DNA of 64,000 nucleotides, taken from NCBI GenBank assembly GCA_021413845.1, contig JAIOPP010000021.1, positions 75,975-139,974 on the forward strand, read 5' to 3'. Positions 3,900 to 14,495 of the stretch are shown in pieces. The notes below the pieces were generated by a model. That model was not told where the DNA came from, did no database searches, and saw nothing but the letters and a program-made list of their open reading frames with translations. The first letter of the stretch is position 1. Every line of letters starts with the position of its first letter. Both the position numbers and the translations under genes were made by a program. The DNA is from Planctomycetia bacterium. Lineage in GTDB: Bacteria; Planctomycetota; Planctomycetia; Pirellulales; PNKZ01.

Positions 3900-4658
3900 T
3901 TAGCTTTTGACTCCGGCCGCGATTCCCAAAAAGTCGGCGGCCTTCAGGCTCGCTCCGCCGACCAAGGCTCCGTCCACATTCGGTTGCGACATCAATTCGA
4001 CCGCGTTACTGGGCTTCACGCTACCGCCGTAGAGGATGCGCACCTTTTGGGAAAGCGGCTCATTGTAGCGTTGAGCGATCAGTTTGCGAAGGTCGGCATG
4101 CACTTCTTCCGCCTGCTCCGGGCTGGCCGTCAGGCCGGTGCCGATCGCCCAAACCGGTTCGTAGGCGATGACGATCTTTTCCATCTGCTCGGCCGAAATT
4201 CCGGCCAAAGAGCCCTCGAACTGCTTCCGGATCACATCTTTGGTCCGGTTTTCTTGCCGCTCGGCCAACAGCTCGCCGACGCAGACGATCGGGCTGATCC
4301 CGGCCGCCAAGGCCGCGAGGGTCTTCTTATTCACCACGGCGTCGGTCTCGCCCAGTATCGTCCGGCGCTCGCTATGGCCGAGGATCACGTATTTGCACTC
4401 GAGGTCGACGACCATCGTGGCGGCCGTTTCGCCGGTGTAGGCACCCGGAGCTTCGGGATACAAATTCTGCGGCCCCCACGCGACGGCCGAGCCTTTCAAG
4501 ACTTGGCGCACCGCATCGACGTAGACCGTGGCGGGAAACACGGCGAGCTCGCATTGCGGATAGTTCTTAGCACCGTCGGCCACGGCGCCGGCCAGGGCGA
4601 CCGACTCGCTGCGGGTGAGGTTCATCTTCCAATTGCCGGCGATGAGCGGGGTTCGCAT
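3900..4658 (-). CDS. tpiA: Triosephosphate isomerase
   Basis: 252 aa. AGNWKMN, GHSERR and IAYEPVWAIGTG motifs. Confidence 0.95.
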   Translation of the reverse strand: MRTPLIAGNWKMNLTRSESVALAGAVADGAKNYPQCELAVFPATVYVDAVRQVLKGSAVAWGPQNLYPEAPGAYTGETAATMVVDLECKYVILGHSERRTILGETDAVVNKKTLAALAAGISPIVCVGELLAERQENRTKDVIRKQFEGSLAGISAEQMEKIVIAYEPVWAIGTGLTASPEQAEEVHADLRKLIAQRYNEPLSQKVRILYGGSVKPSNAVELMSQPNVDGALVGGASLKAADFLGIAAGVKS

Positions 4659-4906
4659 GCTTGCTCTCTCGATTCTCTCGTGCTGAGTGTTCGTTGGGTG
4701 GACTACAGGTTTGCCTTATCGACCGCCGGGCTTGCGATGCGAAAGCCGCTCGAGGCGGCTCCGAAGACGAACGAAGTTCGCCAGGGCGAAGTCTGCACGA
4801 TGGCCGCGAAATTGTCTAGCGGCTCGGAACGACAGGGCCCGTTATTTTCGCGAGACGGGACTAGAAGACCGAGAAGACGCGGCCCGAGCGTGCGAGACGG
4901 AGCCCG

Positions 4907-6034
4907 TTACCCGACCGGCTCGGCCTTCGCATACGACCCTAACACTTCGAGCCGGAGGGTCTTCTTCTCCAACGATTTCAGGGCGTTGCGCACTTTCAGA
5001 TCGGTTTCGTGGCCGTCGAGTTCGACGAAGAACATGTAGCCCCCTTCGGGCCGCGCGATCGGAAACGATTCGATCCAAGTGAGATTCAGCTTGGCGCGCT
5101 TGAAGGCGTTCATCGCGTCGGCCAGCGCTCCCGGTTTGTGCGGCACCTCGAACATCACCGAGAGCTTATCGCGGCCCGTTCGGGCAGCCGATGCTTCGCC
5201 GATGACGAAGAAGCGCGTGACGTTCGATTGATTGTCTTCGATGTTCTCTGCCAAGAGATTCAAACCGTAAACCGCCGCGGCTTGCGCGCCGGCCACGGCA
5301 GCCACCTCCGGGCGCGAGCGGGCCGTTTGGGCGGCGGCGATCGTGCTGGCGACTTCGACCAACCGCGCTTCCGGCAGATGCCGCGAGAGCCAATTGCGGC
5401 ACTGCGACAACGCCTGCGGCTTGCTATGCACTTCGGTAATGCCGGCCCTCGGGCCGACGCCAAGCAGGCTATGGTGGATCGCCAACGGCACCTCGCCGCA
5501 GACGCGTACCCGGAGCCGGGTGAACATGTCGAGCGTGTCGGCAACTCGCCCGTCCGTCGAGTTTTCGACCGGCACGACCCCAAAGTCGGCCTGACCTCGG
5601 TTCACTTCCTCGAAGACGGCCGAAATGCTCCCAACCGGGACTTGGTCGATCGACTGGCCGAAACGGCTCAGCACCGCGAGATGGCTGTAAGTGTAGGCCG
5701 GCCCGAGAAACGCGACCTGGGTCTTGCGTTGCAGCTTCCGCCAACCGCTGGCAAGCTCCCGATAGACGTTCTGCAGCGTCGCGAGGTCGAGCGGACCTTC
5801 GTTCATAGCCTCGGCATCGGCCGGGAGGCTATCGAACGCGGGGGGAATCGCATGGGGTTGGTGAGTTGCAGCCCCGGCCTCGGCTGCGGAGGTGCCGCTG
5901 GTTTGCACGGCCAATTCGGCTCGGCGATTGAGCAGGGCGATGAGTTCGCGGTCGAGCTTCTCGCGTCGGCGGCGCAGAGCTTCCGGCCCTTCGGCTTGGG
6001 GCGGCGACTTCTTTTTGTCGGGCGTTTCAGACAC
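4907..6034 (-). CDS. pheA: Bifunctional chorismate mutase / prephenate dehydratase (P-protein)
   Basis: 375 aa. Chorismate-mutase helix LDRELIALLNRRAELA, PDT region VAFLGPAYTYSHLA ... NVTRFFVIG, and C-terminal ACT-like region (ESFPI...FFVELDGH). Confidence 0.85.
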   Translation of the reverse strand: MSETPDKKKSPPQAEGPEALRRRREKLDRELIALLNRRAELAVQTSGTSAAEAGAATHQPHAIPPAFDSLPADAEAMNEGPLDLATLQNVYRELASGWRKLQRKTQVAFLGPAYTYSHLAVLSRFGQSIDQVPVGSISAVFEEVNRGQADFGVVPVENSTDGRVADTLDMFTRLRVRVCGEVPLAIHHSLLGVGPRAGITEVHSKPQALSQCRNWLSRHLPEARLVEVASTIAAAQTARSRPEVAAVAGAQAAAVYGLNLLAENIEDNQSNVTRFFVIGEASAARTGRDKLSVMFEVPHKPGALADAMNAFKRAKLNLTWIESFPIARPEGGYMFFVELDGHETDLKVRNALKSLEKKTLRLEVLGSYAKAEPVG

Positions 6035-6141
6035 CTAAATCACCTGCTAGCGGAGCGGCCTGCGAGTGCCCCGCTTCCCTCTGTGAAACTGCCAAAATGA
6101 CAACGCCGCTCATTCGTTCCCTAACATGCCAAAACGACAGC

Positions 6142-6170
6142 CTTGAAGAACGAATCGGCTGGCTAAATAT
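6142..6170 (+). promoter_or_regulatory. Candidate sigma32-like heat-shock promoter upstream of dnaK
   Basis: CTTGAA (6142-6147), then 15 nt, then CTAAATAT (6163-6170). This partially resembles the proteobacterial sigma32 consensus CTTGAA-N13-15-CCCCATNT. A strong RBS AAGGAGA lies at 6386-6392 before ATG 6400. Promoter rules for this lineage are unknown to me. Confidence 0.2.
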
Positions 6171-6399
6171 ACCGTTGGATTTCTTGCGAGCAGGCGTAAA
6201 TGTCCTAAGCTAAGCGATTTAACGACTCAATTTTCAGACATTATGCCCGGCGAACGGCGCTGGCACAAACTTTGCTTTATTTGAGGTTCGTCGCTCACAG
6301 CCCGCCACAAACGCAGGCCGATCGACGCGAAACCGCATTTCCAACCAGCGCGCCGTTCGGCGCGAACTCAGTATAGCCGCATCAAGAAGGAGACACTTC

Positions 6400-8319
<1,920 letters not shown>

Positions 8320-8346
8320 ACGTCGTTCAGCTTAAGAGGCAATAAC

Positions 8347-8667
8347 ATGGATGCCGTCACACGTGAGTATGTTGCGGGATTGGAAAATATCTACAAGGAG
8401 ATCTTTGCAACATTCCCCAAAGCGGAACCAGCGAGAAAGGTCGGCTACGGCCTGGCGTTGCCGACCTTTTTCGCCCTCTTGAAAGACAAATGGTCGCCGG
8501 GCGAAATTATTGAAGCGTGTAACCAACTGGAGACGGGAAAAGCCGCCACGATAAAAAACAAGTTCTTCGTACAGCCGACGGAATTAGGCGAAGAAATCAT
8601 CACGGTACTTACCGGTAAAAAAGCCGGCGATTTCAAAGTCCCTGCGTTCGTACCGCCCGGTAGTTAA
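8347..8667 (+). CDS. Hypothetical 106-aa protein, first gene of the low-GC two-gene insert
   Basis: RBS AAGAGG lies 6-8 nt before ATG 8347. The ORF is in a locally low-GC block (hand-counted 26-34 G+C per 60 nt). No family recognised and no signal peptide or TM segment. Confidence 0.6.
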   Translation: MDAVTREYVAGLENIYKEIFATFPKAEPARKVGYGLALPTFFALLKDKWSPGEIIEACNQLETGKAATIKNKFFVQPTELGEEIITVLTGKKAGDFKVPAFVPPGS

Positions 8668-8672
8668 TCCCA

Positions 8673-9314
8673 ATGCCTGCACGATGGCAAATCGATTTCT
8701 GGCCCGAGTGCACGAAACATGCATTCTTGTCGCATTGTGCGGAAGACCGTGCGAATCTCGTATCTCCCGTTTTCGAAGAGCTGGAACGAAGAAAAATTGC
8801 CGGGTGGTTTGACCGGCATCATTATCCGGCAGGAAGAGACTCATTCGAAACGTTACGTGAAGAACTTCTTGGAACGCGCCACGTCGTTTATTTCATCACG
8901 CCTGCGATGCTTAACCAGGGTCGAGGTTGGACTCAAATCGAACGAGGATACTCGGCCACGATTCAGCAGCTTCTTCGTTATGAAGACATTGAACTAGCGC
9001 ATGTAGAACTTCCTCTGCTATTCGCCGATTCGACGGACGATGTGTTCCAGCGTTTGGTCTATCGTTCTCTAATCGACAAATCTCTTCGCTGCAACATTCC
9101 GATTTTGGACGCCGCAGATGGATACTGGGGAAGGAACCACGTCGAGTGGGCGGCGGATGCGATAGAGAGCTTCGTTCACCAAGAAGAGCAGTGGGCGATC
9201 AATCTTGCGGTTCGGTTTGCTCAAGATAGTCATCTACAAGAACGTTTTGCGACGGACGACAATCGAAGACGGCGAATATTAGCGGAAAGCCCGCCGCCGT
9301 TTCCCGGCATTTGA
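8673..9314 (+). CDS. TIR-domain protein (TIR_2-like N-terminal domain plus about 110-aa unknown C-terminal region)
   Basis: 213 aa, starting 5 nt after the upstream ORF stop. Motifs AFLSHCAEDR, KIAGWFDRHHYPAG, RHVVYFITPAML and GWTQIE (W-x3-E, Glu90 codon 8940-8942) follow the order and spacing of bacterial TIR domains. Low GC (28-29 of 60 in two hand-counted lines). Confidence 0.75.
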   Translation: MPARWQIDFWPECTKHAFLSHCAEDRANLVSPVFEELERRKIAGWFDRHHYPAGRDSFETLREELLGTRHVVYFITPAMLNQGRGWTQIERGYSATIQQLLRYEDIELAHVELPLLFADSTDDVFQRLVYRSLIDKSLRCNIPILDAADGYWGRNHVEWAADAIESFVHQEEQWAINLAVRFAQDSHLQERFATDDNRRRRILAESPPPFPGI

Positions 9315-9345
9315 CCCCGATTTGTCTTCGTCGAAATGAGGAACA

Positions 9346-12045
9346 ATGGCATTCCGCTTCGACAAATTCACCATCAAGGCTCAAGAAGCCGTTCAGACTG
9401 CGCAGGAACTTGCGGCCGATCAGGGGAATCCGCAGATCGAGCCAGTGCATCTGTTGGCCGCGCTGACGCGCGAGACCGACGGCATCTTTTGGCCCATCAT
9501 CGAAAAGATCGGTGCCAACCGGCGGCAGCTCCAGTCGATCGTCGATGCGGAGCTGCGGCACTTTCCTAAGTCGACCGGCGGCTCCCCGCCGCAGCTTTCG
9601 CAAGCGATGACGCAAGTGCTCGAGGCGGCGCAGCGCGAAGCCGAGAAGATGAAAGACGAGTTCGTCTCCGTCGAGCATCTGCTCTTAGCGCTCGCCAAGG
9701 CCGACACCAAAGCGAAGCAGCTCCTCAAGGCCAACGCGATCGACGACCAGCAGATTCTCAAGGCGCTGCAAAGCGTCCGCGGGTCGCAACGCGTGCAAGA
9801 TCAGAATCCCGAAGCGAAGTTCCAAGCCTTGCAGAAATACGGCATCGACCTCGTCGACCGCGCTCGGCAAGGGAAGCTCGATCCCGTGATCGGCCGCGAC
9901 CAGGAGATTCGCCGCGTCATCCAAGTTCTCTCGCGGCGGACGAAGAACAACCCGGTCTTGATCGGCGAGCCGGGCGTCGGTAAGACGGCGATCGCCGAAG
10001 GCTTGGCGCTGCGCATCATTCAGGGAGACGTGCCGGAGTCGTTGAAGAACCGCTCGATCGTGACGCTCGACATGGGCGCGCTGATCGCCGGCACGAAGTT
10101 TCGCGGCGAGTTCGAAGAGCGGCTCAAAGCGGTTCTCAAGGAAGTGCAATCGGCCGACGGCAACATCATTCTCTTCATCGACGAGCTGCATACCGTCGTC
10201 GGTGCCGGAGCGGCCGAAGGAGGGAACGACGCGGCGAACCTGCTCAAGCCGGCCCTCGCGCGGGGTGAGCTTCGCTGCATCGGCGCTACCACGCTCGACG
10301 AGTACCGCAAATACATCGAAAAAGATGCCGCCCTCGAGCGCCGTTTTCAACCGGTGTTCGTCGGCGAGCCGAGCGTCGAGGATACGATCGCGATCCTCCG
10401 CGGCCTCAAGGGGCGCTACGAAGCGCATCATAAAGGGGTGAAGATCAAAGACTCGGCCCTCGTGGCCGCCGCGCAGCTTTCGCATCGCTACATCGCCGAC
10501 CGCTTCCTGCCGGACAAGGCGATCGACCTCGTCGACGAAGCGACCGCGCGCCTCGCGATGGAATTGCAAAGCGTGCCGACCGAGATCGACGAAGTGCAGC
10601 GCAAGCTCATGCAACTCGAACTCGCGGCTCGCCAACTCGCCGACGAAACGGAAGAGCACGCCCTCGAGCAAAAGGCCGACATCGAAGCGGAGATGATCGA
10701 GCTGCGCCGCAAGCTGGCGAGCCTCCGCGAGCAATGGGAAGCCGAGAAGCTCGGCGTCGGCGACGTGCAGAACGTCCGCCAGGAACTCGACAAAGTCGAA
10801 CTGCAATTCCAACAGCTCAGCAACGAACTCAAGGAAAAGCAATCGCTCGGCCAAGCGATCGACGAGCAGATGTATCAACGCTTGTACGAGCTCGACGTGC
10901 AGCGCAAGAAACTCACGGCGAAGTTCGAGCAGCCGACGACGGAAACGCCCACCCATAAAGACGGCGACGGCGCGAAGCACGCCGGCCGTAAGCTGCTGCG
11001 CCAAGAGGTCGGGCCGGAGGAGATCGCCGAAGTCGTCAGCGCATGGACCGGCATTCCGGTGACCCGCATGATGGAAGCCGAGAAAGCCAAGCTCTTGGTG
11101 CTCGAAGAGCGGCTGCATCAGCGCGTCGTCGGGCAAGACGAAGCGGTCGAGGCCGTGGCGAACGCCGTGCGCCGTAGTCGCTCCGGCTTGCAAGACCCGA
11201 ACCGGCCGATCGGCTCGTTCATCTTTCTCGGGCCCACCGGAGTCGGCAAGACCGAGCTGTGCAAAGCGCTCGCGCAAGTCCTGTTCGATAGCGAGCAAGC
11301 GATCGTCCGGATCGACATGAGCGAGTTTATGGAGAAGCATTCCGTCAGCCGGTTGATCGGCGCGCCGCCGGGCTACGTCGGCTACGAAGAAGGGGGCCGG
11401 CTGACCGAAGCGGTGCGCCGCAGGCCGTATTCCGTCGTGCTGCTGGACGAAATCGAGAAAGCGCATCGCGACGTGTTCAACGTGCTGCTGCAAGTCCTCG
11501 ACGACGGCCGGCTCACCGACGGCCAAGGACGCACCGTCGACTTCACGAACACGATCATCGTGATGACGTCGAACGTCGGCAGCCAAGCGATTCAAGAACT
11601 GACGCGCAGCGGCGCAAGCCAAGAAGAGATCCAAAGCGCCGTGCAAGAAGCGCTCGAAGAGAAGTTTCTGCCGGAGTTCCTCAACCGGATCGACGAGACG
11701 ATCGTGTTCCACCCGCTCGATCGGAAACACATTCATCGGATCGTCGAACTGCAGCTGCAAAGGTTGGAGAAGCAGGTCGAGCAAAACGATCTACACATCG
11801 AGATTACGCCGGCGGCGATCAACGCCGTCGCGGTCGAAGGCTACGACCCGATCTACGGCGCCAGGCCGCTCAAGCGGGTGATTCAACAGCGATTGCAGAA
11901 CCCGCTGGCAAGCGAGCTGCTGCGCGGCGAATACCCGCCGGGGAGCACGATCGGAATCGATTTCGTCGACGAGGAGTTCGTGTTTTCTCGTCTCGAAGCG
12001 AAAAAACCGGCCGCGCCGCCGCTGAAGCCGGCCACGGCCAAGTAA
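9346..12045 (+). CDS. clpB: ATP-dependent chaperone/disaggregase ClpB
   Basis: 899 aa. Clp N-domain, Walker A motifs GEPGVGKT and GPTGVGKT, and a long coiled-coil middle domain. RBS GAGGA lies before ATG 9346. Confidence 0.97.
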
Positions 12046-12146
12046 CCGTCGATTCGTTCCCCCTCGCAACCTGCTGGCTCGAATCGAGGGCTTGGTATAA
12101 AATCGAGTATCTCCAGCCCTCGCCAGCCCGCCGCCACGGAATTCCC

Positions 12147-14495
12147 ATGAACCAACGCACTCGCCGGTCGTTCTTCGTACCCGCGGTTTTGCTCGCTCCC
12201 CTGGTTCTCGGCTGGGCGAGCTTCGCTTGCTTCGGAGCGGAAGAAAAGCCGGCCGAGAAGACGACGCCGCCGGTCGCCGCTCCGGCCGCGGCAGCCCCTC
12301 CGAGCGCCGAAGAGAAGCACGTGAAGGAGACGATTTCGTTCCTCGCCTCCGACGGACTCGAAGGGCGCGGGCCCGGCACGAAGGGGATCGATCAAGCCGC
12401 GGAGTTCATCGCCGCCGAATTCAAGAAGGCGGGATTGAAGACCGATCTGTTCGCCGGCCAACCGTACCAAGCGTTCTCGATGGGCATCGGCTCGGAGCTC
12501 GGCAAACGAAACTCACTCACGCTCGTCGGCCCGCCGGGACCGGACGGCAAGCCGCGCCGCATCGAACTCAAGCTCGGGCAAGACTATTCGCCCCTTTCGA
12601 TCGGCGGCTCGGGCAAGATCAACGTGCCGCTCGTATTCGTCGGCTATGGCATCACGGCGAAGCAAAGCTCGCAAGCGGCGCTGGATCCGCACGCCGATCC
12701 GCATGCCAACCCCCACGGCGATCCGCACGCGAAGCCGGCGGATCCGAAGACGCCTACTCCCAAGGGAACTGCCCCGAAGGCGCAGCCTGCTGCGGCGAAG
12801 GAACCTGCTAAGGAAAAGGAACCTGTGAAGGAGCCGGCTAAGGAGGCCGCGAAACCGCAAGCGGTGGTTGATCCGCATGCCGCGCCGGTGAAGGCGGGAG
12901 CGAAGCCGGAAGATGCGATCGTGTACGACGATTACGCCGGCATCGACGTGAAGGGGAAGTGCGTCGTCGTGTTTCGCCATCAGCCGCAGCAAGGGAACCC
13001 GCACGGCATCTTGCCCGGCATTCCGAACTCGCCGCACGCTCCGTTCACGCGCAAGATCTCGAACGCCTACGAACATGGTGCCGCGGCGGTCATCTTCGTG
13101 ACCTCGGACTACGACATCAACAACAAGCTCGAAGCCCGGCGGAAGCAGTGGCAAGAGGCGGTCGACGAAATCCTTGAAGAACAAAAGAAGTTTGCGGCGA
13201 TCAAGAAGCCGACGCCGGCCCAAACGGCCGAGTATCGCAAGACGATCGACGCCGCTGCGCAGCAAGTGCTCGACCAGAGCAAGAAGCTCGACGACGAGCG
13301 CGATCCGCTGCTCGAGTTCCGCAGCGCCGGCGGCTCGTCCGACGGCTCGCGCCTCCCCGCGATGCACGCCCGCCGCAAGGTTTGGGACACGCTGCTGACG
13401 GAGCTCAAGAAGCCTACTCTCGCCGGAATCGAGAAGCAGATCGACGAAGGGCCGAAGCCGCAAAGCTTCTCGCTCGAAGGGTGGAGCGTCGAAGGAGAGG
13501 TCGACGTCGAGCGCAAAGAAGCCGAAGTGAAGAACGTGGTCGGCGTGCTCGAAGGAGACGGCCCGCATGCCGACGAAACGGTCGTCATCGGCGCGCATTA
13601 CGACCATCTCGGCTTCGGAGGCGAAGGTTCGTTCGTGCCGACGGTGCGCGAAATCCACAACGGTGCCGACGACAACGCCTCGGGCACCACGGCCCTCTTG
13701 GAAGCGGCCCGCCTGCTCGGTTCGAGCGGCAAGAAGCCGGGCCGACGGATCGTATTCATCGCGTTCACGGCGGAAGAACGCGGCCTGATCGGCAGCGCTC
13801 GCTACTGCAAAGACCCGCTGTTTCCGCTGGAGAAGACGGTCGCGATGTTGAACATGGACATGGTCGGTCGCCTCACCGACGACAAGCTCATCATCCAAGG
13901 GGGGGACACGGCGAAGGAGTTCACGACGTTGCTCGACAAACTCAACGCCGACGAATTTCACTTCAAGCTCACGCACAATCCCGGCGGCTTCGGGCCGAGC
14001 GATCATGCCTCGTTCTATGCGAAGAAGGTGCCGGTGTTGCACTTCTTCACCGGCTTGCATAAGGACTATCACCGTCCGACCGACGACGCCGACAAGGTGA
14101 ACGCGGCGGGACTGATCCGCGTGGCGAAGATGGTGAGCGATACCGCGGCGACGATCGCCCAACTGCCGGAACGTCCGACGTATCAAGAATCGAAAGCCGG
14201 CGCATCCGGCGGCGGCGATCGAGGCGGCGACCGACCCTACTTCGGCAGCATCCCCGACTTCGCGCAAAGCGAGCCGGGCTACGGCATCAGCGGCGTCGCG
14301 AAGGGTAGCCCGTCGGAAAAGGCGGGGCTCAAGAGCGGCGACGTGATCATCAAGTTGGGGGAGAGCCGCGTCGGCAATCTCGACGACTTCGACTCCGCGC
14401 TCCGCAAGTTCAAAGCGGGCGATAAGGTTACGGTCGTCGTGAAGCGCGAGGGGAAGGAAGTCTCTCTGTCGGTGACGCTCGGCGCGCCGCGGTAG
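12147..14495 (+). CDS. Secreted M28-family aminopeptidase with PA-like insert and C-terminal PDZ domain
   Basis: 782 aa. Signal peptide, then M28 metal-ligand motifs ([44 protein letters not shown]). PDZ region [19 protein letters not shown]. Confidence 0.85.

Follow-up and report, generated by a model that had tools for sequence, protein, structure and literature searches.

A winged-helix–TIR gene pair between dnaK and clpB and at other housekeeping loci of Planctomycetota and Latescibacterota

Two low-G+C genes lie between dnaK and clpB

We analysed a 64,000-nt stretch of DNA from a Planctomycetia bacterium (contig JAIOPP010000021.1; hereafter the window), scanning its 50 proteins, and studied two small genes located between the chaperone genes dnaK and clpB. 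The first, ORF1, encodes a winged-helix (wH) protein and the second, ORF2, a TIR-domain protein; together they are called the pair. The locus is laid out as follows (aa, amino acids; E, expectation value).

6400-8319, + strand: dnaK (Hsp70), 639 aa; HSP70 match with E = 6e-266; 68-78% identical to relatives
8333-8338, + strand: Shine-Dalgarno-like AAGAGG of the wH gene, 8 nt before the ORF1 ATG, read from the sequence
8347-8667, + strand: ORF1, winged-helix (wH) partner gene, 106 aa; from profile search and AlphaFold2 model
8673-9314, + strand: ORF2, TIR-domain gene, 213 aa; from Pfam TIR_2, AlphaFold2, Foldseek and family alignment
8940-8942, + strand: GAA codon of Glu90, the predicted catalytic glutamate of W86-x3-E90, invariant in 46 sequences
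9346-12045, + strand: clpB (disaggregase), 899 aa, starting 31 nt past the TIR stop codon; 64-74% identical to relatives

All four genes are on the + strand, separated by gaps of 27, 5 and 31 nt. An earlier note, made from the letters of this DNA alone, had given the same coordinates and gaps and a good ribosome-binding site before ORF1, and all were exact on recheck. No Shine-Dalgarno sequence precedes ORF2 itself. Judged from their homologues, both ORFs are real genes. The G+C content of the pair is 50.8%, compared to 60.3% for dnaK, 62.1% for clpB and 62.2% for the window, and no other 1-kb stretch in the whole 64 kb is as low. The same holds for third codon positions (GC3), with values of 0.58 (ORF1) and 0.49 (ORF2) against 0.83 (dnaK), 0.81 (clpB) and 0.68-0.88 for the other window genes of at least 150 aa. 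The eight 60-nt G+C values that the note had counted by hand were likewise reproduced exactly.

ORF2 is a TIR protein with conserved catalytic residues

Sequence profiles and structure prediction place ORF2 among TIR proteins of the AbTir/BtTir class. Four motifs had first pointed to a TIR domain (AFLSHCAEDR, KIAGWFDRHHYPAG, RHVVYFITPAML and GWTQIE), every one of which is found in ORF2, and the assignment is upheld by a Pfam TIR_2 (PF13676) match to residues 18-94 that exceeds the gathering threshold (35.3 bits vs 28; E = 1.8e-8). We found 48 homologues besides ORF2 itself, nearly all full-length (200-228 aa) and 36-63% identical to it, which bear an identical precomputed TIR_2 match. An AlphaFold2 model based on 46 sequences reached a mean predicted local distance difference test score (pLDDT) of 92.9 and a predicted template-modelling score (pTM) of 0.90. 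With this model, Foldseek retrieved TIR domains in 27 out of 27 PDB matches with E ≤ 0.001, the best being AbTir (7uxu; E = 3e-5, template-modelling (TM) score of 0.77 on the target) and the next ones BtTir, RUN1 and SARM1. These structural alignments span approximately 150-190 columns, and the protein can be divided into a conserved N-terminal extension (residues 1-14), the TIR core, and a family-specific C-terminal helical extension (154-202). Hence, of the roughly 110 aa after the core that had been described as unrecognised, much is the rest of the TIR fold, and it is the remainder, the helical extension, that is particular to this family.

Fourteen positions are invariant in the 46-sequence alignment: W5, P11, S20, E24, P32, W45, D47, P52, R69, T76, R84, G85, W86 and E90. 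AbTir depends on residues S140, D167, W204 and E208 for its NADase activity (PMC11374754). S140 and D167 correspond to S20 and D47 of ORF2 in a profile-vs-PDB alignment, and W204 and E208 to W86 and E90 through their common W-x3-E spacing. In the profile-vs-PDB search, W86 and E90 also fell on the W-x3-E segments of BtTir, whose catalytic residue is E230 (bioRxiv 10.1101/2022.05.07.491051), and of Cat1, so that the proposal of Glu90 as the catalytic glutamate stands. The AbTir equivalent of W86 has been linked to the formation of cyclic products (PMC11374754). The predicted catalytic competence of ORF2 is thus well supported by sequence conservation. Like the AbTir/BtTir/TcpB class of TIR NADases, ORF2 combines the TIR fold with the FxSHxxED motif in strand beta-A and with D47, W86 and E90 as counterparts of residues that AbTir needs for activity. 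Its family differs from AbTir and BtTir, to which sequence identity is merely 17-20%, in that these have an N-terminal coiled coil and no dedicated wH partner, while the ORF2 family carries the 14-residue N-terminal extension and the approximately 50-residue C-terminal helical extension instead.

ORF1 belongs to a conserved winged-helix family

A single-sequence homologue search with ORF1 gave no match except itself, in line with the view that it resembled nothing known. This orphan status reflected the insensitivity of single-sequence searches and did not survive a profile. Small ORFs located 5' of TIR homologues on other contigs proved 39-47% identical to ORF1, and a profile built from four sequences recovered more than 130 homologues of about 105 aa each. 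An exhaustive search with a hidden Markov model against 1.84 billion representative sequences then yielded 176 wH clusters at 50% identity, nearly all shorter than 180 aa, among which no fusion of wH to a large multidomain protein was found. One member, P0051 (206 aa), consists of two wH copies fused in tandem.

The AlphaFold2 model of ORF1 (pLDDT 93.2) has three core helices, a beta-hairpin wing and one more helix, which is the winged-helix topology, and on this model we consider the fold established. Foldseek superposed it on winged helices of the MarR family, TubR, DtxR and GntR (TM ≈0.56-0.61, with E only ≈0.05); against viral structures it returned generic winged helices alone (E ≥ 0.013). 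We found no match of ORF1 in Pfam, NCBIfam, PADLOC or PHROGs, and nothing significant in a sequence-profile search of the PDB. ORF1 is therefore not assigned to the MarR family: the likeness to MarR and other small wH proteins is one of predicted fold, and MarR proteins are larger (approximately 140-160 aa) and possess dimerisation helices that are absent from the 106-aa ORF1.

The wH family is acidic (median isoelectric point 5.1), its helix 3 (residues 51-63), which would be the DNA-reading helix, is acidic or neutral, and a C-terminal V-P-x-F-x-P-P motif is conserved. Any DNA binding by this family is thus far putative. From the acidity of the family and of helix 3, and because the dnaK-linked loci offer wH no promoter region of its own, we infer that wH would act at the protein level rather than on an operator.

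The two genes travel together

We collected 57 loci with the pair or the TIR gene, from 45 species-level genomes and 12 metagenome contigs, and removed five near-duplicates to obtain 52 non-redundant loci. In 43 of these 52 a wH homologue lies directly 5' of the TIR gene, two show the reversed order (L009, 7361-8312; L024, 10001-10932), and in the remaining seven wH went undetected at the E-value used. The proposal of a two-gene module is thereby borne out. The TIR gene of L009 had been missed altogether by the gene caller of the source. The wH gene is tandemly duplicated in three loci (L010, 9134-9982; L027, 4855-5448; L035, 9386-9979), and behind the gene of P0255, a remote member of the wH family, there is likewise a TIR_2 gene of 218 aa. 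Between the stop codon of wH and the start of TIR there is a median of 9 nt; the distance is at most 19 nt in 42 out of 43 loci, and zero or negative in 11. Such short or negative gaps suggest translational coupling, and with it the production of both proteins in a fixed proportion. A small, coupled and co-inherited upstream partner, as found here, is also what characterises type II toxin-antitoxin modules.

The 45 species-level genomes belong to Thermoguttaceae, Pirellulales, Planctomycetaceae, Gemmataceae, Phycisphaerales and Latescibacterota, with one Sumerlaeaceae and one metagenome-assembled genome (MAG) labelled Spirochaetia. Two wH-TIR pairs occur in a Gemmataceae MAG (L016 and L032) and in a Latescibacterota MAG (L022 and L035); the copies of the former fall in two deep subfamilies of the TIR tree, suggesting that the pair was duplicated long ago or passed from one lineage to another. 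A few copies look damaged, with apparent frameshifts in the wH gene of L001/L011 (7667-7979) and the TIR gene of L031 (9649-10295), and a protein, P0102 (188 aa), that joins wH to the C-terminal part of the TIR protein only. These could be decaying copies or MAG assembly errors.

The pair occupies stable housekeeping positions

Two recurrent settings were observed. The first (group A: the window and L001, L002, L010, L012, L013 and L025) has the order pheA(-), dnaK, wH, TIR, clpB. In L031 and L038 the pair is linked to dnaK with no adjacent clpB, which brings the dnaK-wH-TIR(-clpB) arrangement to eight loci other than the window. Organism labels assign the dnaK-linked loci to Pirellulales (L010, L013) and Planctomycetales (L025, L038); L001 and L011 are the same contig.

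The second setting (group B) has the order CYTH, nadC(-), wH, TIR, a glycogen-synthase-like gene, a 354-aa gene and an aminotransferase gene(-), and comprises seven loci, six of them from Latescibacterota (L007, 6952-8942; L027, L028, L033, L035, L039 and L052). The pair is divergent from nadC in 6/7 of them. nadC encodes quinolinate phosphoribosyltransferase, an enzyme of de novo NAD synthesis; the presence of an NAD-consuming enzyme beside it may be meaningful or mere synteny. The ≈100 nt located 5' of wH are almost invariant in group B and contain a sigma-70-like TTGTCG-17-TATTTT, so that outside the dnaK position the pair appears, from its upstream sequence, to have a promoter of its own.

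The remaining ≈30 loci have varied housekeeping neighbours, and among their 115 flanking proteins none of the Pfam families is shared by more than 4. PADLOC matches among the flanking proteins of these non-syntenic loci are few, mostly generic kinases. TIR relatives were found in no IMG/VR contig, phage record or plasmid. The pair is chromosomal, and neither its neighbours nor these searches give it the features of defence-island or mobile cargo; it is absent from mobile elements in the databases searched. In one widespread metagenomic lineage (L003-L006, 8634-9938; 24 contigs read) a gene for a MATCAP-family metallopeptidase comes after the pair, then a PIN-domain pair, and clpB is not in that position.

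A sigma-54-type element precedes the chaperone genes

Upstream of dnaK we identified a candidate promoter region.

6090-6102, + strand: TGCCAAAAYGACA repeat, candidate enhancer-binding-protein site, read from the sequence
6130-6142, + strand: second TGCCAAAAYGACA repeat, candidate site of the same kind
6261-6275, + strand: sigma-54-type -24/-12 element TGGCAC-N5-TTGC, 125 nt 5' of dnaK

The TGGCAC-N5-TTGC element agrees with the sigma-54 consensus and is its sole exact match in the 64-kb window, and it recurs 60-140 nt 5' of dnaK in nine other loci, pair-bearing and pair-less alike (L001, L010, L012, L031, L059, L066, L077, L081 and L090). Related CTG(T/C)CATTTTGGCAG and AAAATGGCAG blocks align 5' of dnaK in relatives. 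On the + strand of 6000-12400 we found no terminator-like or sigma-70-like site, in agreement with the reported lack of terminators in the gaps. Near dnaK and clpB there was no match to the CIRCE operator at up to 3 mismatches and none to the HAIR operator, the one HAIR-like site of the window (49883) being within chance expectation. The sigma-54-type element is likely to be the promoter of a whole dnaK-wH-TIR-clpB unit, and its conservation suggests that the chaperone genes of this lineage are sigma-54 dependent rather than controlled by CIRCE, HAIR or sigma-32. Co-transcription of the pair with dnaK and clpB is plausible, and given gaps of 27, 5 and 31 nt with no terminator it would be the most economical arrangement; the tight spacing recurs in most relatives with the dnaK-wH-TIR(-clpB) order.

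The association with dnaK is probably old, and is patchy

Low G+C accompanies the pair across many lineages and genomic positions, falling below that of the 10-kb flanks in 38 of 46 loci, by a mean of 7.3 points for wH and 6.3 points for TIR. Since the deficit is not tied to a given host or position, we regard low G+C as a family trait and not as proof of recent entry. It could stem from weak codon selection, from amino-acid content or from an old foreign origin.

A scan for the ClpB N-domain revealed pheA-dnaK-clpB loci devoid of the pair (L059, L060, L062, L066, L069, L076, L077, L081 and L113). When DnaK sequences are arranged in a neighbour-joining tree, pair-bearing and pair-less loci are intermingled within two clades, the first eight of these pair-less loci (L059 to L081) being interspersed with the dnaK-linked pair loci. 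Its presence is thus patchy, and the pair does not answer to the description of a universal dnaK-clpB component with an established housekeeping function. The TIR proteins of dnaK-linked loci are only 36-55% identical, and TIR identity correlates with DnaK identity (Spearman: 0.64). The simplest history compatible with these sequences would be one old insertion into the dnaK-clpB spacer, before the split between Pirellulales and Planctomycetales, followed by repeated loss. In the pair-less L060 the dnaK-clpB spacer extends over 1.5 kb (4476-6000); it contains no convincing ORF, resembles neither wH nor TIR, and has a G+C content like that of the surrounding locus.

Comparison with known TIR and toxin-antitoxin systems

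The pair lies outside Thoeris and the other named TIR systems, as had been proposed: no PADLOC, NCBIfam or Pfam model fits it. It resembles Thoeris in having a stand-alone TIR protein of about 200 aa beside a second gene. It differs in that ORF1, a winged helix of 106 aa, lacks an effector domain, which would leave that role to the TIR protein itself, and in that no ThsA-type SIR2/SLOG/Macro/TM protein was found among the 50 window proteins (PADLOC and Pfam, E ≤ 1e-5). Matches of ORF2 to defence models are partial. The ThsB model aligns residues 16-90 with positions 168-240 of its 303 (E = 1.9e-4), and PADLOC PDC-S66 aligns residues 17-90 with positions 151-222 of its 282 (E = 8.2e-7), neither being full-length. 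The NCBIfam models for Thoeris type III and retron-TIR score 14.8 bits (cut-off 220) and 26 (cut-off 600). Other PADLOC matches in the window are best explained as generic ATPase-type similarities, such as that of the SMC protein to LmuB. Among PDB sequences, the TIR family profile matches Cat1 best (E = 3.9e-7), including its W...E segment. Cat1, TIR-SAVED, TIR-APAZ/SPARTA and retron-TIR proteins are fused to or paired with CARF, SAVED, APAZ-pAgo or reverse transcriptase, and none of these is present here.

A similar organisation is that of the Xre-RES modules (NatR-NatT, MbcA-MbcT), in which a small upstream partner of helix-turn-helix type and the NAD+-destroying enzyme encoded after it are tightly coupled. 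NatR-NatT, chromosomal like wH-TIR, is a toxin-antitoxin pair of the core genome; its toxin depletes NAD and gives rise to persisters (PMC11535050). The folds differ, RES toxins being NAD+ phosphorylases rather than TIR domains and Xre partners carrying an Xre helix-turn-helix with a neutralising domain rather than a winged helix; Pfam finds TIR_2 alone in ORF2 and nothing in ORF1, which places the pair outside Xre-RES. We regard NatR-NatT as the nearest functional precedent, by analogy. The likeness of wH-TIR to toxin-antitoxin pairs is one of gene organisation, with toxicity and neutralisation as predicted properties.

Searches of the literature brought up neither a TIR gene in a dnaK/clpB operon nor a wH-TIR pair, and a search on PDC-S66 likewise gave no account of the module. 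wH-TIR is an old, conserved and undescribed module of Planctomycetota and Latescibacterota. Its TIR effector domain is known; the dedicated wH partner and the stable, housekeeping-embedded setting are new.

Interpretation and alternatives

We tentatively favour, at a level just short of an even call, that wH-TIR is a chromosomally fixed, toxin-antitoxin-like pair made of a regulator and an NAD-cleaving effector. This reading builds on observed features: two genes with modelled folds, conservation of the catalytic residues, strict pairing of the genes, their synteny, and the lack of copies on mobile elements. The TIR protein would cleave NAD+, possibly cyclising it to an isomer of cyclic ADP-ribose (cADPR), a product made possible by the presence of the cyclase-associated tryptophan. 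The wH protein would form a complex with it as a dedicated, antitoxin-like regulator acting at the protein level, either inhibitor or sensor, and release of the TIR protein under stress or infection would lead to NAD+ loss and growth arrest. In this lineage, where the pair has no recognisable promoter of its own, it would be transcribed together with dnaK and clpB from the sigma-54-type promoter, and we propose that its dose therefore rises with the proteotoxic-stress response.

Several points weigh against this proposal. Vertical retention at housekeeping loci, at order to phylum level, is unusual for toxin-antitoxin or abortive-infection modules and could point to a non-toxic physiological role. 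R151 of AbTir, which is required for activity, is not conserved here (S31 in ORF2). A winged helix with an acidic isoelectric point may still bind DNA, and loci away from dnaK have promoter regions of their own, where wH autoregulation is possible. As for the single old insertion, a search of the empty dnaK-clpB spacers with all family members (E ≤ 0.1) found no relics of the pair, giving merely weak opposite-strand matches, so repeated insertion is possible beside repeated loss. L013 and L025 stand apart from the other dnaK-linked sequences on the TIR tree, which is too poorly resolved to prove monophyly of the dnaK-linked copies; both the DnaK and the TIR trees are neighbour-joining trees with no support values.

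A dedicated anti-phage abortive-infection system would have wH sense a phage component and the TIR protein deplete NAD+, so that the cell is killed or arrested, the site in the chaperone operon being incidental or exploiting phage-induced heat-shock expression. TIR NADases are indeed recurrent defence effectors, the closest PDB sequence is the CRISPR-associated TIR protein Cat1, and weak partial matches link ORF2 to PDC-S66 (E = 8e-7), ThsB (E = 2e-4) and retron-TIR; the G+C content consistently below that of host DNA, the patchy presence, the paralogous copies in some genomes and the duplicated wH genes are also what one might expect of defence genes. The matches to defence models are, however, limited to the shared TIR core and far under family cut-offs, and the genomic context gives no support to the idea of defence or abortive infection raised in the earlier note: the window itself is housekeeping in content, the ≈30 non-syntenic loci have housekeeping neighbours (no Pfam family in more than 4/115) with few and generic PADLOC matches and no defence islands, copies are missing from IMG/VR viral contigs, phage records and plasmids, and the position is stable over order-level divergence. 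We consider an anti-phage system unlikely on this evidence. Much less probable still is that the pair is a foreign islet recently acquired in the chaperone locus of this genome, as the same note had supposed. It is true that it forms the lowest-G+C segment of the 64 kb, with GC3 values (0.49-0.58) under those of all other genes of at least 150 aa. Yet the insertion point is common to eight other loci from two planctomycete orders, whose TIR proteins have diverged to 36-55% identity in step with DnaK (0.64), low G+C follows the pair in 38/46 loci whatever the host or position, and no repeats, integrase, tRNA or mobile-element genes adjoin it in the window.

The pair might instead be a physiological module of NAD-derived signalling or gene regulation rather than a toxin, with the TIR protein emitting a cADPR-type signal or removing nicotinamide from NAD-capped RNAs and wH, as transcription factor or receptor, reading or directing its activity in stress. 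Bacterial TIR proteins can strip nicotinamide from NAD-RNA, altering transcript levels before NAD+ drops (PMC10937652), and vertical retention at housekeeping loci, including the seven beside nadC, the conservation of W86, whose AbTir equivalent is tied to a cyclic product, and the winged helix as the commonest bacterial DNA-binding fold would all suit this role. Against it, a ligand pocket would hardly fit in the 106-aa wH, which lacks any extra domain and has an acidic helix 3; none of the known cADPR receptor domains (SLOG, Macro or SAVED) is encoded nearby; and repeated loss from otherwise identical operons disfavours a core regulatory function; overall, we find it rather improbable. A regulatory role of another kind, ORF1 as an HspR-like heat-shock regulator of the dnaK-clpB operon with the TIR gene as passenger, has a precedent in actinomycete HspR, a product of the dnaK operon that controls clpB as well, and would agree with the winged-helix fold. 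We rejected it as highly improbable: the wH gene keeps company with the TIR gene and not with dnaK, most pair loci have neither dnaK nor clpB within 10 kb, close relatives run the same sigma-54-type dnaK-clpB operon with no wH and thus dispense with it, no HAIR or CIRCE operator lies near dnaK or clpB, and the wH family is acidic.

In a further reading, to which we assign a low probability, wH or the wH-TIR complex would be a chaperone client and chaperone overload would free the TIR protein. The sigma-54-driven dnaK-clpB operon would co-produce TIR and its wH inhibitor under proteotoxic stress, and the freed TIR protein would cut NAD+ or emit a cADPR-type signal, leading to dormancy. If true, this would be a bacterial, non-immune, SARM1-like link of protein-folding stress to NAD+ metabolism, with a TIR protein wired into proteostasis for hundreds of millions of years.

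To our knowledge, bacterial TIR enzymes have been described almost solely as effectors of phage defence or of virulence that travel with defence islands. The wH-TIR family is unlike them in having an unnamed wH partner of its own, in its fixed housekeeping positions (a heat-shock operon in Planctomycetia and the vicinity of nadC mainly in Latescibacterota), and in its apparently vertical inheritance over order-level distances. That a conserved and apparently catalytic TIR protein should be kept in a heat-shock operon was unexpected; if active, it offers a testable case of NAD+ cleavage coupled to a stress response and not to infection. The wH protein adds a new type of partner to the catalogue of TIR systems, and the conserved putative sigma-54-type dnaK-clpB promoter bears on the control of heat-shock genes in the little-studied Planctomycetota.

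Other features of the window

Opposite dnaK and clpB there are antisense ORFs of 606 aa (6433-8253, - strand) and 699 aa (9685-11784, - strand), which we rejected as genes, stop-poor reverse frames being typical of high-G+C coding DNA. An Rfam scan of 5800-12400 returned no RNA family save a chance snoRNA match antisense to dnaK. The genes of the window encode CoaBC, guanylate kinase, YicC, TIM, PheA, peptidases, LpxC, SMC, MoxR/DUF58 and similar proteins.

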